Source: a virus
Lineage: Duplodnaviria > Heunggongvirae > Uroviricota > Caudoviricetes
Virus record (IMG/VR): IMGVR_UViG_2875718163_000001
Coordinates: 1-12,446 of that record
Strand: one strand, 5' to 3'
Length of the DNA: 12,446 bases
Of this stretch, positions 1-12,446 are shown in pieces; the stretch's first letter is position 1, and each line of letters starts with the position of its first letter. The translations under genes were made by a program, and so were the position numbers. The notes beneath the pieces were generated by a model. The model searched no databases. It worked only from the letters and a program-made list of their open reading frames with translations, and was not told the origin of the DNA.

Positions 1-1164
1 TTACGCCTTCTTTATATCCTCCATAATTTCAGAGTGGGACATATTTGGGACATTATCACCAAAAATGTCGTCTATTTTCCTCGCATGCTCTGTCAAATGA
101 TTAGGCGCAAGGTGAGCATACCTACGAACCATTTCTATGGACTCCCATCCGCCCATTTCCTGAAGCACTGATAATGGGACGCCTGACTGAATCAGCCAGC
201 TTGCCCAGGTGTGTCTGAGGTCATGGAAACGGAAATCTTCAATTCCTGCACGACGACAAGCTGATAGCCATGATGTCTTGCTGTCGATGCGCATCTTCCT
301 GACCGCAGGCGTTGATGTTCCATCTGCTCGCTTAGCCGCCTTGGTATGTACAAACACCCATTTGTGATGCTTGCCTATTTGATCACGCAACACTTTACAG
401 GCGGTATCGTTCAGCGCCACACCAATGGCGCGGTTTGATTTGCTCTCTTCTGGATTCACCCAGGCAACTCGTCGCTGCATGTCGATTTGTTGCCATTCCA
501 GATTTATGATGTTCGACTTTCTCAGACCAGTTGCCAGCGCAAACTTGACGACAGATTTCAGTGGTTCGGGGCACTCATCAATAAGGCGTTTTGCTTCCTC
601 CTTTTCCAGCCATCTGACTCGCTTGTTTCTGACCGCTGGTATCTTGATGACAGGCGCTTTTTCCAGCCACTTCCAGTCGCGTTCTGCAGCACGGAGAATG
701 GCCTTTATCATGGCAAGATGCTTTGCCTTTGTCTGAGTTGATACTGGCTTTGGTTCATAAACAGGCAGTTCTTTACCTTTCCTGATGGCGGCCTGAACTT
801 TCTGTTTCCATATTTCTTTCGTCTTTCTGTTATGCATTCTGCTTACAGCAGAGTAAATCTTTGCCTCCGAGATATCTTTAAGCCTTATACCCTCAAAATG
901 TTCAAGCCAGAACTCAATCCGGCTTTTATCTGAATCGAGAGATTTTTTATCAGCTTTTTCCTCAAGCCATCTTAGGCAGGCCTCTTCAAAAGTGACATCA
1001 GGTAAATCCCCTAGCTTTTCTACTCGCCAGAGTTCTGCTTTTCGCTTGTCGTGCAACTCCTGAGCTTGCCGTTTGTCCTTTGTGCCAAGAGATTCCTTAA
1101 TTCGTTTCCCGCCCGGGAGCGAATACGAGGCATACCATATTTCATTTCTGCGGAAGAGTGACAT
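1..1164 (-). CDS. intD: Phage-type tyrosine integrase (site-specific recombinase), apparently intact
   Basis: 387-aa minus-strand ORF whose stop is the complement of 1-3. Translation carries the tyrosine-recombinase boxes (...GLRKSN..., ...HDLRHTWAS..., ...VRRYAHL...). N-terminus [14 protein letters not shown]... matches Rac/DLP12-type prophage integrases as I recall them. Symbol assigned from the DLP12-like context. Confidence 0.92.
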
Positions 1165-1283
1165 TTTCTTTCCTCTGTTATGCCATCACCCGCGCTCACC
1201 TGGACAGTATGCAGCGGAGACTGAAGCGCCGCAATGCAGGCTTGCCGTGTTGTGAGGTACCCGGATATTATCGTGAGGATGCG

Positions 1284-1547
1284 TCATCGCCATTGCTCCC
1301 CAAATACAAAACCAATTTCAGCCAGTGCCTCGTCCATTTTTTCGATGAACTCCGGCACCATCTCGTCAAAACTCGCCATGTACTTTTCATTCCGCTCAAT
1401 CACGACATAATGCAGGCCTTCACGCTTCATGCGCGGGTCATAGTTGGCAAAGTACCAGGCATCTTTTCGCGTCACCCACATGCTATCTGGCACCTGGGCC
1501 ATGTAAGCCGATTTTATTGCCTCGAAACCACCGAGCCGGAATTTCAT
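1284..1547 (-). pseudogene. exoD: C-terminal fragment of lambda-type exonuclease (Exo/RedAlpha); 5' part of gene deleted
   Basis: 87-aa minus ORF ending ...[48 protein letters not shown], which I recognise as the lambda Exo C-terminus. Similarity continues a few codons upstream of the ATG (..[12 protein letters not shown]) and is then lost, consistent with a deletion endpoint near 1560. Confidence 0.7.
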
Positions 1548-1636
1548 GAAATCCCGGGAGGTACGAGTATTGCCGGAAGCGTGGCCTGTATCCGGATGCA
1601 GAGTCTTATCCGTGGAAATCGAACGCGCATTACTGG

Positions 1637-1873
1637 TTGGTTACCAACTTGTACCAGAACATGCGGGCCAATGCGCTGGCTGACGCGGAATTACGGCGCA
1701 AGGCTGCCGATGAACTGACCTGTATGACAGCGCGAATTAACCGTGGTGAGACGATACCTGAACCAGTAAAACAACTTCCTGTTATGGGCGGTAGACCTCT
1801 AAATCGTGCACAGGCTCTGGCGAAGATCGCAGAAATTAAAGCTAAGTTCGGACTGAAAGGAGCAAGTGTATGA
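1637..1873 (+). pseudogene. peaD: C-terminal fragment of lambda replication protein P; N-terminal ~2/3 deleted
   Basis: ORF ends ...LNRAQALAKIAEIKAKFGLKGASV, recalled as the lambda P C-terminus. Its stop overlaps the next ATG (ATGA at 1870-1873), as P/ren do in lambda. No ATG before codon 9; first in-frame start is TTG. Confidence 0.6.
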
Positions 1874-1962
1874 CGGGCAAAGAGGCAATTATTCATTACC
1901 TGGGGACGCATAAGAGCTTCTGTGCACAGGACGTTGCCGCGGTAACAGGCGCAACCGTAATC

Positions 1963-2390
1963 TGATCTTACCCAGCAATAGTGGACACGCGGCTAAGTGA
2001 GTAAACTCTCAGTCAGAGGTGACTCACATGACAAAAACAGTATCAACCAGTAAAAAACCCCGTAAACAGCATTCGCCTGAATTTCGCAGTGAAGCCCTGA
2101 AGCTTGCTGAACGCATCGGTGTTACTGCCGCAGCCCGTGAACTCAGCCTGTATGAATCACAACTCTACAACTGGCGCAGTAAACAGCAAAACTTTCATTC
2201 GCTGAAAGTGGAATGTATCCATGGAGAACACTTTATCAGCCGGGAAATAATGCGGGCAACGGTGTTTAATTATATCGAATGTGATTACAATCGGTGGCGG
2301 CGGCACAGTTGGTGTGGCGGCCTCAGTCCGGAACAATTTGAAAACAAGAACCTCGCTTAGGCCTGTGTCCATATTACGTGGGTAGGATCA
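1963..2390 (+). mobile_element. IS3-family element with a large internal deletion (428 bp retained), both terminal inverted repeats present
   Basis: Left end TGATCTTACCCAGCAATAGTGGACAC; right end reverse-complements to TGATCCTACCCACGTAATATGGACAC (imperfect terminal IRs). Internal ORF is IS3 OrfA N-terminus fused to OrfB C-terminus. Flanking triplets are ATC (1960-1962) and ACC (2391-2393), so a clean 3-bp target duplication is not seen. Confidence 0.88.
2028..2360 (+). pseudogene. In-frame fusion of IS3 OrfA N-terminus (HTH region) to the last ~50 aa of the OrfB transposase; catalytic domain absent
   Basis: [55 protein letters not shown] | [55 protein letters not shown]; junction near 2190-2193. 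Track ORF starts at an upstream GTG (2019); ATG at 2028 is the IS3 orfA start. Confidence 0.65.
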
Positions 2391-2670
2391 ACCAGCATAA
2401 ATCAGGCTGCGGCTAAAATGGCGCGGGCAGGAATCCTGGTCGTTGATGGTAAGGTCTGGCGAACGGTGTATTACCGGTTCGCTACCAGAGAAGAATGGGA
2501 AGGAAAGGTGAGCACGAATCTGATTTTTAAGGAGTGTCGCCAGAGTGCCGCGATGAAACGGGTATTGAGGGTATATAAAAGAACATCAATGGGAACACAA
2601 TGATGAAACAGGTGAGTTGAGTTCAAACTGTAGTACAATTCTCTCCAGTTTGAACAGGAAAGAATATGCT

Positions 2671-3003
2671 ATGAACCCTTATATTTATCTTGGTGGTGCA
2701 ATACTTGCAGAGGTCATTGGTACAACCTTAATGAAGTTTTCAGAAGGTTTTACACGGTTATGGCCATCTGTTGGTACAATTATTTGTTATTGTGCATCAT
2801 TCTGGTTATTAGCTCAGACGCTGGCTTATATTCCTACAGGGATTGCTTATGCTATCTGGTCAGGAGTCGGTATTGTCCTGATTAGCTTACTGTCATGGGG
2901 ATTTTTCGGCCAACGGCTGGACCTGCCAGCCATTATAGGCATGATGTTGATTTGTGCCGGTGTGTTGATTATTAATTTATTGTCACGAAGCACACCACAT
3001 TAA
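2671..3003 (+). CDS. emrE: Small multidrug resistance (SMR) efflux transporter EmrE
   Basis: 110-aa ORF MNPYIYLGGAILAEVIGTTLMKFSEGFTRLWPSVGTIICYCASFWLLAQTLAYIPTGIAYAIWSGVGIVLISLLSWGFFGQRLDLPAIIGMMLICAGVLIINLLSRSTPH, recognised as EmrE. Four hydrophobic helices with the conserved membrane Glu (..LAEVIG..). AGGA 12 nt upstream of ATG 2671; the track ORF from 2617 is an upstream extension. Confidence 0.93.
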   Translation: MNPYIYLGGAILAEVIGTTLMKFSEGFTRLWPSVGTIICYCASFWLLAQTLAYIPTGIAYAIWSGVGIVLISLLSWGFFGQRLDLPAIIGMMLICAGVLIINLLSRSTPH

Positions 3004-3033
3004 AATAATTTGTTTCTAAACGACTAAAATATG

Positions 3034-3074
3034 GAGGCTCTTATATTTATATGAGCCTCGTTTTATGCTTTTTG
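3034..3074 (+). terminator. Probable intrinsic terminator after emrE
   Basis: GAGGCTC (3034-3040) / GAGCCTC (3053-3059) perfect 7-bp stem with a 12-nt loop, followed by GTTTTATGCTTTTTG, 30 nt after the emrE stop. Confidence 0.5.
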
Positions 3075-3257
3075 TTAATGTCTTTATTTTTTATGTATTC
3101 TTTTGTGCTTTCAAGATTATGGCGTAAGAAAATTGCAATACGATTATTGTTGTATATTCAAGATAATGTGACCTTAATTGTCTTTTTAAATAAAAAATAA
3201 ACAAAAATTATATCCCACCACTAAGGTTTATAAAAGCATACGTTAGCAGGTGTCACC

Positions 3258-4784
3258 ATGAAAAAAGCCATAGCATATATGCGATTTTCATCACCAGGTC
3301 AGATGTCTGGCGACTCATTAAACCGACAGAGAAGACTTATTGCTGAATGGTTAAAGGTAAATAGTGATTATTATCTTGATACCATAACATATGAAGATTT
3401 AGGATTAAGTGCATTCAAAGGAAAGCATGCACAATCAGGAGCTTTTTCGGAATTTTTAGATGCTATAGAGCATGGTTATATATTGCCAGGAACTACATTG
3501 TTAGTTGAAAGTCTGGACAGACTTTCAAGAGAAAAAGTCGGTGAAGCGATTGAACGTCTGAAATTGATTTTGAATCACGGTATTGATGTTATAACTCTTT
3601 GCGACAATACAGTCTATAATATTGACTCTTTGAATGAGCCATATTCATTAATAAAAGCCATACTTATAGCACAAAGGGCAAATGAAGAAAGCGAGATAAA
3701 GTCAAGTCGGGTTAAATTATCATGGAAGAAAAAACGGCAGGATGCACTGGAATCAGGTACGATTATGACGGCGTCTTGTCCGAGATGGCTCTCCTTAGAT
3801 GACAAAAGAACGGCTTTTGTTCCAGACCCCGACAGGGTGAAAACTATTGAGCTAATTTTTAAACTCAGGATGGAAAGGCGCTCATTGAATGCAATAGCCA
3901 AGTATTTAAATGATCATGCTGTAAAGAATTTCTCAGGAAAAGAAAGTGCATGGGGACCTTCTGTAATTGAAAAATTATTAGCGAATAAAGCTCTGATAGG
4001 TATTTGCGTACCTTCATATCGTGCAAGAGGGAAAGGGATAAGTGAAATCGCTGGCTATTATCCCAGAGTCATATCAGATGATTTGTTTTACGCTGTACAG
4101 GAAATTCGGTTGGCACCTTTTGGTATTAGCAATAGTAGCAAGAATCCTATGCTAATAAATCTACTTCGAACAGTTATGAAGTGTGAGGCTTGTGGTAATA
4201 CCATGATTGTTCATGCGGTATCTGGAAGTTTGCATGGCTATTATGTTTGTCCGATGAGAAGATTACATCGATGTGACAGGCCATCAATAAAAAGAGATTT
4301 GGTTGATTATAATATCATTAATGAATTGCTTTTTAATTGTAGCAAAATTCAACCAGTTGAAAACAAGAAAGATGCTAATGAAACTTTAGAGTTAAAAATT
4401 ATTGAGCTTCAGATGAAAATTAATAATTTAATCGTTGCATTGTCTGTCGCGCCTGAAGTTACCGCTATAGCAGAGAAAATAAGACTATTAGATAAGGAAT
4501 TACGAAGGGCTTCGGTATCATTGAAAACTTTGAAGAGTAAAGGTGTAAATTCATTCAGTGATTTTTATGCTATTGACTTAACCAGTAAAAATGGACGAGA
4601 GTTATGCCGTACACTTGCCTATAAAACATTCGAAAAAATCATAATTAATACGGATAATAAAACCTGTGATATCTATTTTATGAATGGCATTGTTTTTAAA
4701 CACTATCCTTTAATGAAAGTAATATCCGCCCAGCAGGCGATAAGTGCTCTCAAATATATGGTTGATGGTGAGATTTATTTCTAA
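3258..4784 (+). CDS. ybcK: Large serine recombinase (resolvase catalytic domain + recombinase domain + zinc ribbon + coiled-coil tail)
   Basis: 508-aa ORF. N-terminal AIAYMRFSSPGQ (nucleophilic Ser context) and ..VESLDRLSR.. resolvase motifs; Cys cluster CEACGN...C..C..HRC; C-terminal Leu/Ile-rich heptad-like stretch. Visibly AT-rich codon usage unlike flanking phage genes. AGGTG 6 nt upstream of ATG. Confidence 0.9.
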   Translation: MKKAIAYMRFSSPGQMSGDSLNRQRRLIAEWLKVNSDYYLDTITYEDLGLSAFKGKHAQSGAFSEFLDAIEHGYILPGTTLLVESLDRLSREKVGEAIERLKLILNHGIDVITLCDNTVYNIDSLNEPYSLIKAILIAQRANEESEIKSSRVKLSWKKKRQDALESGTIMTASCPRWLSLDDKRTAFVPDPDRVKTIELIFKLRMERRSLNAIAKYLNDHAVKNFSGKESAWGPSVIEKLLANKALIGICVPSYRARGKGISEIAGYYPRVISDDLFYAVQEIRLAPFGISNSSKNPMLINLLRTVMKCEACGNTMIVHAVSGSLHGYYVCPMRRLHRCDRPSIKRDLVDYNIINELLFNCSKIQPVENKKDANETLELKIIELQMKINNLIVALSVAPEVTAIAEKIRLLDKELRRASVSLKTLKSKGVNSFSDFYAIDLTSKNGRELCRTLAYKTFEKIIINTDNKTCDIYFMNGIVFKHYPLMKVISAQQAISALKYMVDGEIYF

Positions 4785-4982
4785 ATAATGATCTCGGATT
4801 TTAAGTTATGCTATGGTGATAAAGTGCAAGACAGAATTAATTATCTTTGACGAAACTTAATGGGTAATTACTTTGTTTGCTCCCACAAGCGAGTTTTGTA
4901 CGGCTGTATTGGGGTAGTAAATGAGCTATACAATCTTAATCATTTGTTAGGTGAGAACTCTTGGTCGCAGATTCAAATACTG

Positions 4983-5032
4983 AAAATACGTGACAAATTA
5001 TTATGAGCAAAATGGTGTATGTCACGTATTTT
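4983..5032. repeat. Perfect 13-bp inverted repeat with 24-bp spacer (AAAATACGTGACA / TGTCACGTATTTT)
   Basis: Arms at 4983-4995 and 5020-5032 are exact reverse complements; read directly from the sequence. Lies ~200 bp downstream of ybcK and ~215 bp upstream of ybcL. Confidence 0.85.
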
Positions 5033-5248
5033 GAATGGTAGGTTAAAAAATAACACCGACTTTCGTAGGTGTTACTAATAATAAAGCAGAGTTTTTAGAT
5101 AGTATCAATGTGCTTTGTGTATATTGTGGCAAATAATTGGGTTGGGGGTACAATTGTGATTGCTTTTGCATGAACATTGCGCCTTTATGCATAATGAGAT
5201 AAAGGAATATCAAATAAAATAACGATAGGTCATAACAAAGAGGTTTTT

Positions 5249-5800
5249 ATGAAAACACTTATCGTTTCAACTGTATTGGCATTCATAACATTTTCTGCGC
5301 AGGCTGCAGCATTTCAGGTCACTAGTAATGAAATAAAAACAGGAGAGCAACTTACAACGTCTCATGTCTTTTCTGGATTTGGGTGTGAAGGTGGTAATAC
5401 ATCGCCCTCATTAACCTGGTCTGGTGTTCCTGAAGGTACCAAAAGCTTTGCCGTAACTGTATATGATCCAGATGCACCTACAGGCAGTGGTTGGTGGCAT
5501 TGGACTGTTGTTAATATTCCAGCAACAGTAACATATTTGCCCGTTGATGCAGGGAGACGTGATGGAACAAAACTGCCGACTGGTGCTGTTCAAGGCCGAA
5601 ATGATTTTGGCTATGCTGGGTTTGGTGGCGCATGTCCTCCTAAAGGAGATAAACCACATCATTACCAGTTTAAAGTATGGGCTCTAAAAACTGAAAAGAT
5701 TCCTGTAGATTCTAACTCCAGCGGAGCGTTAGTTGGTTATATGCTTAATGCTAATAAAATCGCAACCGCTGAGATAACACCAGTTTATGAGATAAAGTAG
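5249..5800 (+). CDS. ybcL: Periplasmic PEBP/RKIP-family protein (phosphatidylethanolamine-binding protein homologue)
   Basis: 183-aa ORF with signal peptide MKTLIVSTVLAFITFSAQA and PEBP signature VYDPDAPTGSGWWHWTVVNIP...GYAGFGGACPP..HHY. GAGG 5 nt upstream of ATG. Confidence 0.9.
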   Translation: MKTLIVSTVLAFITFSAQAAAFQVTSNEIKTGEQLTTSHVFSGFGCEGGNTSPSLTWSGVPEGTKSFAVTVYDPDAPTGSGWWHWTVVNIPATVTYLPVDAGRRDGTKLPTGAVQGRNDFGYAGFGGACPPKGDKPHHYQFKVWALKTEKIPVDSNSSGALVGYMLNANKIATAEITPVYEIK

Positions 5801-5809
5801 GGTGAGAGT

Positions 5810-6607
5810 ATGCTGGCAAGAGGTAAGACTAACTTAAAGATCGAAGAAATACGGATGCATAAACATCATGAGATTCATAGGGTTAAGCCTCTTATGCCAG
5901 CTTTGTGTCGTATCCGTCAGGGAAAGAAAGTTATCAATTGGGAGACGCATACTTTAACTGTTGATAATAATCAAATAATATTATTTCCTTGTGGTTATGA
6001 ATTTTATATTGAGAATTATCCTGAAGCAGGGCTTTATCTTGCAGAAATGCTTTACTTACCCATTGATTTAATTGAGAGTTTCCAAAAACTTTATACGGTA
6101 ACTGATCAAATACGTAACAAAACAAGTTTCTTTTTACCTCAGAATCCTGAGTTAATATATTGTTGGGAGCAACTAAAAACATCTGTTTCCCGAGGCTTCT
6201 CAACTAAAATTCAGGAGCACTTAGCAATGGGCGTTCTACTTTCGTTAGGAGTGAATCATGTTAATCATTTACTTTTATCATATAGTAAACAATCATTGAT
6301 AAGTCGTTGTTATAACCTGCTGCTATCCGAACCCGGCACAAAATGGACAGCAAACAAGGTTGCTCGATATCTCTACATTTCTGTTTCTACATTACATCGC
6401 CGTCTAGCAAGCGAGGGGGTAAGTTTCCAAAGTATACTGGACGATGTGAGGTTAAATAATGCGTTGTCTGCTATACAAACGACGGTAAAACCTATAAGCG
6501 AGATTGCCAGAGAAAATGGTTATAAGTGTCCTTCTCGTTTTACTGAAAGATTTCATAATCGTTTTAATATAACACCAAGAGAGATAAGAAAAGCTTCCAG
6601 AGAGTAA
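5810..6607 (+). CDS. ybcM: AraC/XylS-family transcriptional regulator
   Basis: 265-aa ORF with C-terminal double-HTH AraC domain (..[44 protein letters not shown]...[25 protein letters not shown]). Starts 9 nt after the ybcL stop, so probably co-transcribed. Confidence 0.88.
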
Positions 6608-6671
6608 AAGTGTTTTAAGAAGGAGCAATTCTATCGATTTTGATTTTGGGAAATCAACACGGCATAATTAT

Positions 6672-6700
6672 GTCACCGGAGCCTGAACAACTCCGGTGAC
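6672..6700 (+). terminator. Strong hairpin (10-bp perfect stem GTCACCGGAG / CTCCGGTGAC, 9-nt loop); possible terminator or boundary element
   Basis: Read directly. Lies 65 nt after the ybcM stop and ~120 nt before the NinB-like gene, where lambda places tR2. The trailing sequence TTCTGCGCT is only weakly U-rich, so the intrinsic-terminator call is uncertain. Confidence 0.4.
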
Positions 6701-6723
6701 TTCTGCGCTAAACGGGGACGTTT

Positions 6724-6825
6724 ATGCGCACATACAATCCAAACTCTCTTCTCCCTTCACAGATGCAGAAATGCACCTGCAATTCTTTGCATCTAGCGTT
6801 TGACCTCTGCGGAGGGGAAGCGTGA
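6724..6825 (+). CDS. ylcH: Small ORF (33 aa) immediately upstream of and overlapping ybcN start
   Basis: ATG 6724 ... TGA 6823-6825 encodes [33 protein letters not shown]; its stop overlaps the ybcN GTG (GTGA). Matches the size and position I recall for ylcH; no independent coding support. Confidence 0.3.
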
Positions 6826-7277
6826 ACCTCTCACAAGACGGCATCAAATTACATCGCGGCAACTTCACCGCTATCGGTCGGCAGATCCAGCCTTATCTGG
6901 AGGAGGGCAAATGCTTTCGCATGGTGCTTAAACCGTGGCGTGAGAAACGCAGTCTTTCCCAGAATGCACTCAGCCACATGTGGTACAGCGAAATCAGTGA
7001 ATACCTCATCAGCAGGGGTAAAACGTTCGCCACTCCAGCTTGGGTAAAAGATGCTCTCAAACACACATATCTCGGTTATGAAACCAAAGACCTGGTTGAT
7101 GTCGTAACCGGTGATATCACCACTATCCAGTCGTTACGCCATACCTCCGATCTTGATACCGGAGAGATGTATGTCTTCCTGTGTAAGGTTGAAGCCTGGG
7201 CGATGAATATTGGTTGCCACCTGACTATTCCACAGAGCTGCGAGTTCCAGCTGCTGCGCGACAAGCAGGAGGCGTAA
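6822..7277 (+). CDS. ybcN: NinB-like (lambda Orf/NinB family) recombination-associated protein
   Basis: 151-aa ORF with GTG start preceded by GGAGGGG. Motif ..[18 protein letters not shown].. resembles the lambda NinB ..RSLDQN..LW.. region. First gene of a tightly overlapped nin-type operon. Confidence 0.85.
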
Positions 7278-7447
7278 TGGCTACACCGCTTATTCGTGTC
7301 ATGAACGGACACATCTACAGAGTACCAAATCGTCGTAAGCGTAAACCTGAGCTGAAGCCATCCGAAATACCAACACTGCTCGGATATACCGCCAGCTTGG
7401 TTGATAAAAAATGGTTGCGACTGGCAGCAAGGAGGAGTCATGGCTGA
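7277..7447 (+). CDS. ninE: NinE-family small protein
   Basis: 56-aa [62 protein letters not shown] overlaps the ybcN stop (TAATG). The track ORF from 7214 is an upstream extension. Confidence 0.8.
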   Translation: MATPLIRVMNGHIYRVPNRRKRKPELKPSEIPTLLGYTASLVDKKWLRLAARRSHG

Positions 7448-7730
7448 TTTGAGAAAAGCAGCGCGTGGTCGGGAATGCCAGGTAAGAATCCCTGGCGTAT
7501 GTAATGGCAACCCTGAAACGTCTGTACTGGCACATATCCGGCTGACTGGATTGTGCGGCACCGGTACGAAACCGCCAGACCTGATTGCCACCATTGCATG
7601 TTCTGCCTGCCACGACGAAATCGACCGCCGCACGCATTTTGTTGACGCTGGATATGCAAAAGAATGCGCGCTGGAAGGTATGGCGAGAACACAGGTTATC
7701 TGGCTGAAAGAGGGGGTTATTAAGGCGTGA
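7440..7730 (+). CDS. ybcO: Cysteine-rich nin-region protein (DUF1364-like, putative nuclease)
   Basis: 96-aa [26 protein letters not shown]...CSACHDEID.. with AGGAGG upstream. Overlaps the ninE end by 8 nt and its stop overlaps the rusA GTG. Confidence 0.8.
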
Positions 7731-8089
7731 ATACCTACAGCATCACATTACCCTGGCCTCCGAGCAATAATCGCTATTACCGCCATAATCGCGGGCGCAC
7801 GCACGTCAGCGCAGAGGGGCAGGCATACCGCGATAACGTCGCCCGAATCATTAAAAACGCAATGCTGGATATCGGCCTGGCTATGCCTGTGAAAATCCGC
7901 ATTGAGTGCCACATGCCGGATCGCCGTCGCCGTGACCTGGATAATCTGCAAAAAGCCGCTTTTGACGCACTCACTAAAGCAGGTTTCTGGCTGGATGATG
8001 CTCAGGTCGTTGATTACCGCGTTGTGAAGATGCCTGTTACCAAAGGTGGGAGGCTGGAACTGACCATCACCGAAATGGGGAATGAATGA
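7727..8089 (+). CDS. rusA: RusA Holliday-junction resolvase (endodeoxyribonuclease)
   Basis: 120-aa [123 protein letters not shown], recognised as RusA with the acidic catalytic residues (..DRRRRDLDN.., ..DD..). GTG start overlapping the ybcO stop. Confidence 0.9.
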
Positions 8090-8226
8090 TGTTTGAGTTT
8101 AATATGGCAGAACTTCTTCGCCACCGCTGGGGGCGTCTGCGCTTATATCGTTTCCCCGGTTCTGTTTTGACCGATTACCGAATACTGAAGAATTACGCCA
8201 AAACCCTGACAGGAGCAGGAGTATGA
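8086..8226 (+). CDS. ylcG: Small nin-region ORF (46 aa)
   Basis: ATGATG start overlapping the rusA stop; encodes [46 protein letters not shown]. Below the ORF-track length cut-off; supported only by position and coupling. Confidence 0.5.
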
Positions 8227-8311
8227 AGTCAGAGATAACAATCAACTAATACTGTTTTGTTGATTTTTGCTTGTAATTGGCGTTCTGGTCTGATTTTTGT
8301 GGAGTAAGTTG

Positions 8312-8695
8312 ATGCGTGATATTCAGATGGTTCTTGAGCGTTGGGGAGCGTGGGCGGCTAATAATCATGAAGATGTGACCTGGTCGTCCATTGCCGCCGG
8401 TTTTAAGGGATTAATTACTTCAAAAGTAAAATCTCGCCCGCAATGTTGTGACGATGACGCGATGATCATTTGCGGGTGCATGGCCCGTCTGAAAAAGAAC
8501 AACAGCGATTTGCACGATTTATTAGTAGATTATTATGTAGTCGGTATGACATTCATGTCACTGGCAGGTAAGCATTGCTGCTCTGATGGTTATATCGGGA
8601 AAAGGTTACAGAAGGCTGAGGGCATAATTGAAGGGATGTTAATGGCATTAGATATCCGGTTAGAGATGGATATCGTTGTTAATAACTCTAATTAA
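8312..8695 (+). CDS. quuD: Late-gene antiterminator Q homologue (phage 82/21 Q type)
   Basis: 127-aa [25 protein letters not shown]... with Cys-rich region (..[18 protein letters not shown].., ..HCCSDG..). GGAG 8 nt upstream of ATG 8312; the track ORF from TTG 8297 is an extension. Sits where lambdoid Q genes sit. Confidence 0.85.
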
Positions 8696-8834
8696 TATGC
8701 CAATTGTTTACTAAAAATTATTAAAAATGGGGCGTTGAGACGCCCCCAAAAATAAAGGGTAATATATAACAGAAGGTTTATATAGTTAGAAGCAAGGTTG
8801 TGCTTCTAAAGGAAGTGGCTTGAGGGAGCCACTT

Positions 8835-8876
8835 ATATGTTGGGGAGGCAACGCCTCCCGCAACATATCTTTTTCG
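8835..8876 (+). terminator. Intrinsic terminator: long hairpin followed by CTTTTTCG
   Basis: ATATGTTGGGGAGGC (8835-8849) pairs with GCCTCCCGCAACATAT (8853-8868), with a 7-bp perfect GC-rich core, a 3-nt loop and one bulge, then a T-run. 140 nt downstream of quuD. Confidence 0.6.
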
Positions 8877-8884
8877 TAATCAGA

Positions 8885-8944
8885 TTAGAACTGGTAAACC
8901 AGACCTACAGCAACGATGTCATCAGTGCTTACACCGAGTGCTTT
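8885..8944 (-). pseudogene. nmpC: 3' stub (~19 codons) of an OmpC/OmpF-family porin gene
   Basis: Minus-strand reading gives ...KALGVSTDDIVAVGLVYQF-stop, the characteristic porin C-terminus ending in Phe. Porin-like sequence is lost upstream of this, so only the gene tail survives. Confidence 0.5.
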
Positions 8945-9095
8945 AGGGAAGGTGCGAATAAGCGGGGAAATTCTTCTCGGCTGACTCAGTCATTTCATTT
9001 CTTCATGTTTGAGCCGATTTTTTCTCCCGTAAATGCCTTGAATCAGCCTATTTAGACCGTTTCTTCGCCATTTAAGGCGTTATCCCCAGTTTTTA

Positions 9096-9395
9096 GTGAG
9101 ATCTCTCCCACTGACGTATCATTTGGTCCGCCCGAAACAGGTTGGAAAAAATGCCAGAGACTCCGCTGAAGTGGTGGAAACCGCATTCTGTACTTTCGTG
9201 CTGTCGCGGATCGCAGGTGAAATTGCCAGTATTCTCGACGGGATCCCCCTGTCGGTGCAGCGGCGTTTTCCGGAACTGGAAAACCGACATGTTGATTTCC
9301 TGAAACGGGATATCATCAAAGCCATGAACAAAGCAGCCGCGCTGGATGAACTGATACCGGGGTTGCTGAGTGAATATATCGAACAGTCAGGTTAA
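9096..9395 (+). pseudogene. nohD: C-terminal fragment of terminase small subunit Nu1; N-terminal DNA-binding half missing
   Basis: From ~9147 the ORF reads [82 protein letters not shown], recalled as the lambda Nu1 C-terminus. Upstream codons are unrelated and the frame is closed by TAG at 9093-9095. The 26-nt overlap with the following A start is as in lambda. Confidence 0.75.
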
Positions 9396-10113
9396 CAGGC
9401 TGCGGCATTTTGTCCGCGCCGGGCTTCGCTCACTGTTCAGGCCGGAGCCACAGACCGCCGTTGAATGGGCGGATGCTAATTACTATCTCCCGAAAGAATC
9501 CGCATACCAGGAAGGGCGCTGGGAAACACTGCCCTTTCAGCGGGCCATCATGAATGCGATGGGCAGCGACTACATCCGTGAGGTGAATGTGGTGAAGTCT
9601 GCCCGTGTCGGTTATTCCAAAATGCTGCTGGGTGTTTATGCCTACTTTATAGAGCATAAGCAGCGCAACACCCTTATTCCAGCTGGCTTCGTGGCTGTTT
9701 TCAACAGTGATGAGTCATCGTGGCATCTCGTTGAAGATCATCGGGGTAAAACGGTTTATGACGTGGCTTCCGGCAACGCGTTATTTATTTCTGAACTCGG
9801 TCCGTTACCGGAAAATGTTACCTGGTTATCGCCGGAAGGGGAGTTTCAGAAGTGGAACGGTACAGCCTGGGTGAAAGATGCAGAAGCAGAAAAACTGTTC
9901 CGGATTCGGGAGGCGGAAGAAACAAAAAACAGCCTGATGCAGGTAGCCAGTGAGCATATTGCGCCACTTCAGGATGCTGTAGATCTGGAAATCGCAACGG
10001 AGGAAGAAACCTCATTGCTGGAAGCCTGGAAAAAATATCGGGTGTTGCTGAACCGTGTTGATACATCAACTGCACCTGATATTGAGTGGCCTACGAACCC
10101 TGTCAGGGAGTAA
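9370..10113 (+). pseudogene. tfaD: Chimeric ORF: terminase large subunit A N-terminus (~103 aa) fused in frame to the C-terminal ~145 aa of a tail-fibre assembly protein (Tfa)
   Basis: [33 protein letters not shown]...[12 protein letters not shown] is lambda gpA as I recall it. From [29 protein letters not shown]... to ...[13 protein letters not shown] is Tfa family. Junction at about 9678/9679. Confidence 0.8.
9949..10089 (+). repeat. Direct repeat copy 1 (~141 bp, Tfa C-terminal coding segment)
   Basis: AGTGAGCATATTGCGCCACTTCAGGATGCTGTAGATCTGGAAATCGCAACGGAGGAAGAA... recurs at 10996-11136 with scattered substitutions. Confidence 0.8.
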
Positions 10114-10127
10114 TCATTGGGATTATG

Positions 10128-10177
10128 CCGCAGCACGTCTTAAGCAAGAACATGCTGCGGTTGGATGCTATTTTTTT
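10128..10177. terminator. Hairpin between convergent genes (possible bidirectional terminator)
   Basis: CCGCAGCA (10128-10135) / TGCTGCGG (10153-10160) 8-bp stem with a 17-nt loop, followed by a T7 run at 10171-10177. Located between the Tfa-fusion stop and the ybcY stop. Confidence 0.4.
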
Positions 10178-10752
10178 CCTGAAGCGGAAAACATTACTAC
10201 AGTACCTTGAACCTTGGTTTTAACATTCTCGAAATGCTCTGAGAGTATATGTGTTAAGCCTTCTTCGGAATCTTTTGTGTTTGAAAAGATGCCTTTCTGA
10301 TTGTAAATGCGCATCAGTTTTTGACCGAAGCTATTGTGCACAACTCCATCGCCAAGAATTGTGGCTCCGTATAGAGTTCCATCGTCAGTTAAGGCCTGCG
10401 CCGCATTGCGTATTACACAGCTTTTTGTAGATATATTTCCAGGCAGGCAGTGAAGAAGGTAAGACATGGAAATGGAATCAAATTGACCATGTAACGCCGC
10501 GGGATAAGGTTCAAAAACATCATGGCTAATTTTATGTTTAATTTTTGATTCCCCAGCCCTTGTAGATGCCGCGTTCAGGCTAGCTTCGTTCAAATCCATT
10601 AAAGATATCAGACTACTCTCAGGTACGTGAGTAAGGTAAAACCCAGTTCCAACACCAATATCCAGATGGTTGTTACCTAAATGTTCCAGAAAGTGTGGAA
10701 GAAGGTGTTCCTTTGTAGGACATCCCCATGCAAGCCGATTTGATACTCCCAA
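10168..10752 (-). pseudogene. ybcY: Class I SAM-dependent methyltransferase, apparently lacking its native start
   Basis: 194-aa minus ORF with SAM motif ..HLDIGVGTGFY... The frame stays open 23 codons upstream to a stop with no ATG or GTG; the only in-frame start is the TTG taken by the track. Suggests N-terminal truncation. Confidence 0.7.
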
Positions 10753-10890
10753 AACCCACCAGTCATAAAGCTTTAGGGTAAGTGGTGTGTAAATTCTAGC
10801 CCCATCATCTGTGTTTTTTTATTAATTTCACCATGTTATAGTTTTATTTGTGAATTAAATCAATTATGGCAATGAATTACAAGGGGTTAA

Positions 10891-11151
10891 ATGCTGCCGC
10901 AGCATAGCGATATTGAAATAGCCTGGTATGCTTCAATACAGCAGGAGCCGAATGGCTGGAAGACCGTCACCACACAGTTCTACATCCAGGAATTCAGTGA
11001 GTATATTGCGCCACTGCAGGATGCTGTAGATCTGGAAATCGCAACGGAGGAAGAAAGATCGTTGCTGGAAGCCTGAAAAAAGTATCGGGTGCTGCTAAAC
11101 CGTGTGGACACTTCCGTAGCACCAGATATCGAGTGGCTTATTCAACCATAA
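10891..11151 (+). pseudogene. tfaX: Tail-fibre assembly (Tfa)-like gene with in-frame premature stop
   Basis: [64 protein letters not shown](11074-11076)[24 protein letters not shown]. The stop sits where copy 1 has TGG (Trp in ..LEAWKKY..). AAGGGG upstream of the ATG. Confidence 0.7.
10996..11136 (+). repeat. Direct repeat copy 2 (~141 bp, Tfa C-terminal coding segment)
   Basis: See copy 1 (9949-10089). Carries the TGG->TGA difference at 11074-11076. Confidence 0.8.
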
Positions 11152-11696
11152 TAAACAGTATGTATATCATAGGTTATTAATTGTGAGTTTTTTCGGTGTG
11201 TTATTTGTTTGTTTGATGTTATGCTTTTGCGCCCCAAAAGGTTGTTTAGATGTATTTTATCAATTGATTTTCAATATCGTTTAATAAAGAAAAATTAAGC
11301 AAGCTGGATGTTGGTTTTTTGTTAATTGAATGGTTCTAATAATGTTTTTTTACTGTTGTTGAATGTGACTTGATAAGAAATGCAAGTAAAAATGATACTC
11401 TTTTTATTTTAAATTCAAACGGTTGACATATATATAGCAAGAGGTTTCAGGTGCGTTGTAGTGAGTTTATGTTAATAAAAAGCATAGTAAGCGTTGAAAA
11501 ATGTAACTTTGAAATAAGTTAGAATAAAAAACAACATACATATAATAATTTAATCTTAAATGAAATTTATTAAAATTTGCAAACTATAATTTTGTGTATA
11601 AAAATATAAATGCACATCATCCTGATTATGATTGTGTATTTAATTGGTTGTTATTTGACTACTATCAACTTGTTTTAATTTTATGATAGGTGCAAG

Positions 11697-12446
11697 ATGG
11701 ATTATGTTTGCTCCGTAGTTTTCATCTGTCAATCATTTGATTTAATTATAAACAGGAGAGTTATCTCGTTCAAAAAAAATTCATTGTTTATTGTAAGCGA
11801 CAAAATTAGAAGGGAGTTACCAGTATGCCCCTCTAAACTAAGAATTGTTGATATAGATAAGAAAACATGTTTATCCTTTTTTATCGACGTGAATAATGAG
11901 CTGCCTGGCAAATTTACTCTTGATAAGAATGGCTATATTGCTGAAGAGGAACCTCCATTATCGCTTGTTTTTTCTCTGTTTGAAGGGATTAAAATAGCAG
12001 ACTCACACTCCCTTTGGTTAAAAGAAAGACTATGTATATCCTTACTTGCCATGTTCAAAAAACGCGAAAGTGTAAATTCATTTATACTAACAAATATAAA
12101 TACATTTACCTGTAAAATTACTGGAATAATCAGTTTTAATATTGAGCGGCAATGGCATTTAAAAGATATTGCGGAATTGATTTATACGAGTGAAAGTTTA
12201 ATAAAAAAAAGATTAAGGGATGAAGGAACGTCATTTACTGAAATATTGAGAGATACTAGGATGAGGTATGCAAAAAAACTCATAACTTCAAACTCTTATT
12301 CTATCAATGTCGTAGCCCAGAAATGTGGCTATAACAGTACTTCATATTTCATATGTGCATTTAAAGATTATTATGGTGTCACGCCATCTCATTATTTTGA
12401 GAAAATAATCGGCGTCACAGATGGAATAAACAAAACAATTGACTGA
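11697..12446 (+). CDS. appY: AraC-family transcriptional activator AppY
   Basis: 249-aa [44 protein letters not shown]... with C-terminal AraC HTH (..[39 protein letters not shown]...[24 protein letters not shown]), recognised as AppY. AGGTG upstream of ATG; AT-rich, low-complexity codon usage; preceded by ~545 bp of very AT-rich DNA. Confidence 0.9.

Follow-up and report, generated by a model that had tools for sequence, protein, structure and literature searches.

A deletion scar joining remnants of exo and P in the cryptic prophage DLP12 of Escherichia coli K-12

DLP12, its relatives, and the window

Like DLP12, Rac and Qin are defective lambdoid remnants with partial gene sets in the Escherichia coli K-12 chromosome. 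Rac and Qin retain immunity-region genes, such as racR and dicA/dicC, whereas neither tblastn analysis nor the Pfam families listed for its open reading frames gave any immunity-region gene for DLP12. A textbook defective prophage, DLP12 was reportedly characterized by Lindsey et al. in 1989. Of 638 Escherichia and Shigella genomes, 74% are reported to carry it at its locus (PMC6379469), and its excision has been measured at <1 per 100,000 cells (Wang et al. 2010, PMC3105296).

Phage ev243 (NC_049955), which was deposited as a complete phage, resembles DLP12 in carrying int, the 3' part of xis, exo, P, ren, rusA, ylcG, and Q in the same order. Unlike DLP12, ev243 has complete xis and P genes, the genes lying from xis to exo, and bet, gam, kil, N, rexAB, cI, cro, cII, and O; its nin region differs in being without the emrE-ybcK-ybcL-ybcM cargo of DLP12. 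In DLP12, ybcK is located in a cargo block, emrE-ylcJ-ybcK-ybcL-ybcM, that takes the place of the nin region. We also observed an uninterrupted P-ren-emrE arrangement (window counterpart 2391-3003) in ~1,007 of 5,426 E. coli genomes, and emrE is therefore cargo positioned just downstream of ren in prophages whose P is still intact rather than a peculiarity of the K-12 remnant.

The window is the whole stretch of DNA that we analyzed, 12,446 nucleotides of IMG/VR record IMGVR_UViG_2875718163_000001, and it is the cryptic lambdoid prophage DLP12 (qsr') of E. coli K-12. Megablast of positions 1-2700 and then of the full window against 5,426 complete E. coli genomes matched K-12-type chromosomes at 99.9%. 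Comparison with K-12 positions 564815-584430 gave 99.9 to 100% identity in three colinear blocks, with equal gene order from intD to appY:

Block 1: window 1-2191, K-12 NC_000913 564815-567005
Block 2: window 2192-9145, K-12 NC_000913 567836-574789
Block 3: window 9147-12446, K-12 NC_000913 581131-584430

The window is bounded by the stop codons of intD and appY and falls within the RefSeq feature "cryptic prophage DLP12." A tRNA-Arg gene is found 15 bp from int in every matched genome; the window begins at the int stop codon, with the att site outside. The integrase gene and the interrupted ren gene, the latter listed as renD::IS3 (b0542) in RefSeq, occupy the following positions:

1-1164, minus strand, intD (b0537), P22-type tyrosine integrase of 387 amino acids (RefSeq K-12 annotation)
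1870-1962, plus strand, renD fragment 1, ren codons 1-30 (tblastn with lambda Ren residues 1-30, E 4e-15; K-12 annotation)
1963-2390, plus strand, IS3 inserted in ren (comparison with K-12 566777-568034; Pfam HTH_Tnp_1 and rve_2)
2391-2603, plus strand, renD fragment 2 (tblastn with lambda Ren residues 25-92, E 2e-35; K-12 annotation)

Deletion joints and the missing immunity and replication genes

A first-pass annotation made from the sequence of the window had placed a deletion junction at 1548-1640, between the tail of exo on the minus strand and the tail of P on the plus strand, and had set the two fragments about 90 bp apart. Our blastn, tblastn, Pfam, and PHROG analyses bore out that a minus-strand C-terminal piece of Exo adjoins a plus-strand C-terminal piece of P, with the joint inside this interval. 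Alignment to lambda exo and P, the check that had been suggested, placed the breakpoint at 1562/1563, where the fragments are in direct contact and have two nucleotides, TA, in common rather than being separated. The 90-bp figure arose because it was taken from the limits of open reading frames (a minus-strand ATG at 1547 and a plus-strand TTG at 1637). The earlier observation is in this way partly confirmed, as real but mis-measured, and its interpretation is partly supported, as essentially right save for a correction concerning xis that is given below. The features at this joint, which we refer to as joint B, are as follows:

1284-1563, minus strand, exoD pseudogene (b0539), lambda Exo residues 135-226 plus stop codon, 96% nucleotide identity to lambda exo
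1562-1563, no strand, deletion joint B, TA overlap in GGGAGG-TA-CGAGT, exo codon 134/135 joined to P codon 131
1562-1873, plus strand, peaD pseudogene (b4508), lambda P residues 131-233 plus stop codon, first in-frame start TTG at 1637

Three-way alignments with lambda, ev243, POCJ13, and SfI resolved joint B (...CCCGGGAGG-TA-CGAGTATTGCC...) at the base level, with the left parent matching through 1563 and the right parent from 1562. By blastn, window 1258-1563 corresponds to lambda 31322-31627 (96.1% identity, E 3e-142) and window 1562-1960 to lambda 39972-40370 (92.2%, E 1e-166); in lambda coordinates, exo spans 31348-32028 on the minus strand and P spans 39582-40283. Identity to ev243 was 96.7% for the exo block and 96.2% for the P block, and phage SfI matched the P-ren portion at 100%.

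Both fragments are partial genes. The exo remnant matched the exonuclease family phrog_149 (E 2.5e-20) and lambda Exo by tblastn (E 1e-56), the latter match starting at residue 108, past the nucleotide homology, which ends at 1563; RefSeq gives the limits of exoD as 1284-1547. Residues 135-226 alone remain of a functional lambda Exo (YqaJ), and PF09588 scored below its cutoff, covering the last 25 profile positions only. The remnant is without the catalytic part of the enzyme, whose catalytic residues in lambda Exo are D119, E129, and K131. The P remnant is 96% identical to lambda P (E 6e-65) and 99% identical to ev243 P by tblastn, and it matched PF06992 (E 4e-18) at positions 95-162 of 162 and the P-like helicase loader family phrog_109 at positions 131-233 of 236. 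Only residues 131-233 of the PF06992 helicase loader are present rather than a complete protein, and the N-terminal 130 residues and the start codon are gone. PGAP annotation of a sibling genome likewise reads 1284-1562 as an exonuclease missing its N terminus and 1562-1873 as replication protein P missing its N terminus. A scan of 1000-2100 for expression signals returned two weak promoter-like sites and no terminators, with no excess over shuffled sequences, and thus provided no evidence that either fragment is expressed.

With a 120-nt joint-centered query at 100% identity, we found joint B base for base in 306 of the 5,426 complete E. coli genomes, including MG1655; among the matches listed, all are K-12-type strains with the joint at the DLP12 locus. 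The scar itself is already known, with xisD, exoD, peaD, and renD::IS3 all present in the K-12 reference annotation, and by itself it adds nothing new to this textbook prophage. Its value is as a base-resolved example of prophage fixation, in which the DNA-binding half of Xis and the immunity and replication block were lost and int was kept.

Relative to ev243, joint B accounts for a loss of 8,299 bp (29825-38121, with the shared TA allowed for) and, relative to lambda, of 8,346 bp. The missing ev243 segment contains the 5' part of exo, bet, gam, kil, an ea10-like gene, ral, sieB, N, rexB, rexA, cI, cro, cII, O, and the 5' part of P. Neither lambda 31628-39971 nor ev243 29825-38121 had a match anywhere in the window by blastn with a word size of 7, and the bet, gam, kil, cIII, N, rexAB, cI, cro, cII, and O products of lambda and ev243 gave no tblastn hit below E 0.1 in the window. 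In a Pfam scan of 52 window open reading frames of at least 45 amino acids, no CI/Cro-type helix-turn-helix family was among the 25 of 31 matched families listed; the helix-turn-helix families listed were of the AraC type (ybcM and appY) and that of the IS3 transposase. The window accordingly contains none of the lambdoid immunity and replication module (CI, Cro, CII, N, O, and ori). The earlier claim that the whole immunity region is absent held in each of these analyses, within the Pfam families listed, as did the tblastn check proposed with it, in which CI, Cro, N, and O gave best E values of at least 0.1. We observed directly what the fragments are, where exactly the joints lie, and that the immunity genes are missing.

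The left end of the element required one correction. The integrase start at 1164, the exo remnant stop at 1284, and the intervening 119-bp gap are all as the first-pass annotation had described, and no intact xis is present, in line with its statement that no xis-sized open reading frame lies between int and exo. However, an 81-codon Xis-like remnant is present at 1020-1265, and the single deletion junction recognized earlier is accompanied by a second one, joint A, located within the 119-bp gap at 1258/1259:

1020-1265, minus strand, xisD pseudogene (b4633), 3' remnant of 81 codons of a P22-type excisionase gene overlapping int (RefSeq 1044-1265)
1258-1259, no strand, deletion joint A, TA overlap, xis codon ~43 joined to codon 10 of an orf60a/DUF1317 homologue
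1258-1287, minus strand, remnant of the orf60a/DUF1317 homologue, first 10 codons (lambda orf60a 31169-31351, minus strand; aligned block 31322-31627)

Lambda Xis as a tblastn query has no match in the window, and P22-type Xis, whose gene overlaps the 5' end of int by ~145 nt, is the proper comparison. In POCJ13 and ev243, a 123-amino-acid Xis open reading frame (MESYSLTLDEACQFLKISRPTATNWIRTGRLQATRK...) extends through the int start, and the xisD remnant aligned to residues 74-154 of the POCJ13 Xis open reading frame with 90% identity (E 6e-46, tblastn). The translated remnant matched 138 phage records, and the stretch is annotated as excisionase in several of them (P22, SfI, SfIV, and ST64T). 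Full-length ev243 Xis contains Pfam HTH_17 at residues 6-36 and matches the excisionase family phrog_2907 from end to end. In xisD, only positions 45-117 of 117 of phrog_2907 are matched, there is no Pfam hit, and HTH_17 is missing, so that xisD has the C-terminal part of a P22-type excisionase rather than the complete protein. A Xis-like coding sequence had been named in advance as a finding that would speak against the earlier reading, and xisD is formally such a sequence, but with HTH_17 deleted the functional conclusion still stands.

At joint A (...GTGTTGTGAGG-TA-CCCGGATATT...), window 1-1259 corresponds to ev243 26905-28163 and window 1258-1563 to ev243 29519-29824, with 1,357 bp missing relative to ev243. 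IntD matched PF00589 at positions 1-171 of 172 (E 5e-47) and aligned to ev243 Int over 387 of 387 amino acids with 99.5% identity, and it is predicted to be an intact tyrosine integrase. Excision by this P22-type integrase class requires Xis. The earlier proposal that the integrase is intact but probably unable to excise the element efficiently fits both a full-length IntD and the published excision frequency of <1e-5.

The window differs from public K-12 genomes at four places, none of which affects joint B. In IS3, 830 internal bp are missing at 2191/2192 relative to K-12, resulting in a 113-amino-acid InsE-InsF fusion open reading frame at 2019-2360. At 9145/9147, a stretch of 6,341 bp that begins within IS5 and ends within nohD is missing, with one extra A at the joint and with loss of the rest of IS5, nmpC, essD, rrrD, rzpD, borD, ybcV, ybcW, ylcI, and the 5' part of nohD. 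At 1485-1490 in the exo remnant, ATCTGG replaces GTACTG, the same six letters scrambled, changing Exo QYS to PDS at a site that reads GTACTG in K-12, lambda, and ev243 alike. Finally, tfaD contains five clustered substitutions at 9765-9775 relative to K-12, mostly synonymous. Searches of the 5,426 complete E. coli genomes and of the two K-12-type representatives in GTDB turned up neither of the two gaps and neither of the two substitution clusters. We also observed a further DLP12 scar at 9675-9677, where codon ~103 of the terminase A gene (lambda 1018) is fused with a TAT overlap to a tail-fiber-assembly gene (lambda 22119), yielding a 247-amino-acid chimeric open reading frame at 9370-10113 (aaaD'/tfaD).

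Alternative decay states and the origin of the scar

Joint-centered and anchor-based searches for variant loci recovered elements in several other states of decay. In ev243 coordinates, the joints of K-12 and of these variants are as follows:

K-12 (window): left joint 28163/29519, central joint 29824/38122
TB06053 (Galapagos water): left joint 28204/29519, central joint 31124/38380
Strain 41 (beef): left joint 28204/28985, central joint 29825/38513
13P484A and H2: left joint 27310/29519; farther right, a larger IS1-bounded loss
WL164 and IMG/VR locus L178: single left/central joint, xis' at 28204 fused to IS3 nucleotide ~531-534
IMG/VR loci L179 and L180: single left/central joint, xis' at 28204 fused to P at 37828

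These natural variants, together with EC7518, share with K-12 the argU site and the same int. They have lost the immunity region or, in 13P484A and H2, have the larger IS1-bounded loss adjoining it, and several contain K-12 breakpoints, but their deletion endpoints differ from those of K-12. TB06053 (10803-14059) has kept exo, bet, and a fragment of gam, and the fusion places this gam fragment ~50 bp upstream of a ren gene that is intact. In strain 41 (7772-10128), an exo remnant almost as long as that of K-12 is fused to a ren remnant. A truncated int is fused to the right endpoint of K-12 joint A in 13P484A and H2, and WL164 (3180-5156) shows the arrangement xis'-IS3'-ren'.

K-12 has kept P residues 131-233 and has lost the 5' part of exo, bet, and gam, whereas TB06053 has kept exo, bet, and the gam fragment, with P reduced to its last 54 nt. 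Because these two deletions overlap and neither is nested in the other, neither is derivable from the other. As read from these alignments, the immunity region was lost at least twice, independently, from a resident prophage in which xis was already truncated, and the K-12 joint is one among several decay outcomes of one element. That the region was lost more than once from one resident prophage is a modest addition to what is known of DLP12.

Considering all of these data, position 1562/1563 is almost certainly a nonfunctional deletion scar in DLP12 that leaves the element fixed in place, probably formed by illegitimate end-joining in a descendant of an ev243-like ancestor. We infer the following model for what the ancestor was, in which order events took place, and how the ends were joined. 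The ancestor would have been an ev243-like phage at argU with P22-type int-xis, red genes of the lambda type, O-P-ren, Q, an immunity region, lysis genes, and a cargo-bearing nin region. A single illegitimate end-joining event between breakpoints that have only the dinucleotide TA in common would have removed ~8.3 kb, connecting exo after codon 134 to P before codon 131 and taking out the 5' part of exo, bet, gam, kil, N, rexAB, cI, cro, cII, the operators, O, the origin, and the 5' part of P. A separate small deletion at 1258/1259 would have cost xis its DNA-binding half and eliminated the genes separating xis from exo. The element would thereby have been left without repressor, lytic regulation, replication initiator, or origin, and with an intact int, no excisionase, and rare excision. 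With no repressor, operators, N, O, or origin, neither induction nor replication would be possible. These likely consequences are drawn from lambda and P22 biology together with one published measurement. The ancestral content is taken from a relative because ev243 is only 96 to 97% identical to DLP12 in exo and P, and no direct undeleted ancestor of DLP12 was among the genomes examined.

Two other origins for the exo-P joint were weighed against deletion within the prophage. Lambdoid phages are highly mosaic and the best relatives of the two arms differ (lambda and ev243 at 96% for exo, SfI at 100% for P), as would be expected if the joint had been inherited as a mosaic product from an already defective or satellite-like phage. 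We consider such an origin very improbable, since both breakpoints fall in the middle of genes and leave nonfunctional fragments without start codons, and since siblings at argU retain either an intact exo-bet-gam (TB06053 and 13P484A) or a longer P (L179 and L180). Furthermore, at least 80% of the ev243 int-to-gam stretch is found in one place in 685 genomes, and joint B is confined to K-12-type chromosomes (306, with all listed examples at the DLP12 locus). The two gaps and two small substitution clusters that set the window apart from complete E. coli genomes and GTDB representatives might raise the suspicion that joint B is an artifact of assembly or construction, but its base-for-base identity in 306 independently assembled complete genomes, MG1655 among them, leaves this explanation a negligible chance. 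Illegitimate end-joining within a resident prophage is the reading that we retain. A 2-nt overlap alone does not identify the joining mechanism, and the G-TA-C signature and reused breakpoints described below may indicate that the event at joint B was not random illegitimate recombination.

A TA motif at deletion joints of DLP12-type prophages

The TA overlap at joint B recurred in an all-against-all comparison of joints across ~100 DLP12-like loci, which took in 80 IMG/VR loci selected by IntD similarity alone. GTDB representatives added two K-12-type loci, with other integrase relatives being too distant for joint calling. We found TA at ~14 of ~35 distinct clean deletion joints, with a product consensus of GG-TA-CC, in a sample that came in part from joint-centered queries, with the ascertainment bias this brings, and in which events are phylogenetically nonindependent. 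The loci showing the signature, besides the window joints, are L007 to L011, L017, L053, L072, L076, and L177 to L180, and both window joints fall in the TA class (GAGG-TA-CCCG at joint A and GAGG-TA-CGAG at joint B). In joints simulated on the same sequence, TA accounted for 3.7% of exact 2-nt overlaps, a flanking G or C being present in 39% of these TA overlaps, and GTA occurs at 1.1% of positions. Breakpoints were also reused. Position 28204 of ev243 has four partners (28985, 29519, 37828, and IS3 nucleotide ~531-534), position 29519 has three (27310, 28163, and 28204), and 31123/4 and 37828-30 were each found in both roles, one time on the left side of a joint and one time on the right. 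Since the intact phage itself carries the GGTA and TACC halves, they are not insertion sequence footprints. As nonrandom sequence patterns, the TA signature and breakpoint reuse in DLP12-type joints suggest a lead rather than a result.

One reading of this pattern is that the exo-P joint is one product of sequence-selective breakage and joining across E. coli DLP12-type prophages, carried out by a recombinase or by a nuclease producing TA cohesive ends at (G)GTA/TAC(C) that repeatedly erodes these elements. The excess of TA at clean joints over the simulated 3.7%, the common GAGG-TA-C of joints A and B, and the reuse of breakpoints with different partners and in opposite directions all point in this direction. 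Against it, some joints do not conform (microhomologies of 8 to 11 nt, TT, AAG, and a blunt joint in TB06053), joint-centered queries supplied and so biased some of the variants, the events are not phylogenetically independent, and no inversions were seen at such sites, those found with TA-type boundaries being IS related. Some of the reuse could also stem from slippage, at a later time, between short repeats that contain an earlier joint, with candidates in the steps from strain 41 to TB06053 via TACC, from TB06053 to K-12 via GTA (41 bp), and from K-12 to 13P484A via GGTA. On balance, we regard a selective process at joint B as possible but rather doubtful, and illegitimate end-joining of the ordinary kind remains our preferred explanation.

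If a selective process were nevertheless at work, the product GTAC would be a better substrate than the parent sites, so that old joints would become new breakpoints, and an enzyme activity so far unrecognized would be shaping prophage decay. Possible enzymes are YbcK, a GTAC-type restriction activity acting at near-cognate sites, a TA-overhang nuclease, or an IS transposase. The signature across DLP12 variants is the only possibly new part of this work and, if upheld, would suggest a specific mechanism of prophage erosion. The product of ybcK (3258-4784) is a 508-amino-acid large serine recombinase (Pfam Resolvase, Recombinase, and Zn_ribbon_recom) and is a candidate for deletions with a TA crossover.

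None of the enzymes considered has a known specificity that fits the joints, and searching the literature for hotspots of TA joints among prophage deletions returned nothing relevant. Tyrosine recombinases use overlaps of 6 to 8 nt, unlike the 2-nt TA. Secondary-site recombination by Int is also unlikely, as the 47-bp att core has neither GTA nor TAC. Judged by consensus sequences, break positions or parental sequences did not fit pseudo-end use by IS1, IS3, or IS5, an IS1 excision footprint, a TTAC cut of the IS608 type, gix-like sites of Hin or Gin, gyrase with its 4-nt stagger, or RusA cutting 5' of CC. Scans for alternative partners gave 0 hits for breakpoint 28204 in metagenomes and 0 hits for the exo arm in viral contigs.

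The region around breakpoint 29519 also contains an insertion in one locus, L017. On the reverse complement of this locus, an IS629-like element of 1,310 bp with a 3-bp duplication (GAT) occupies 1928-3263, 6 nt to the right of ev243 29519, and the same locus carries two more deletions, 28586/29271 and 30418/31123.
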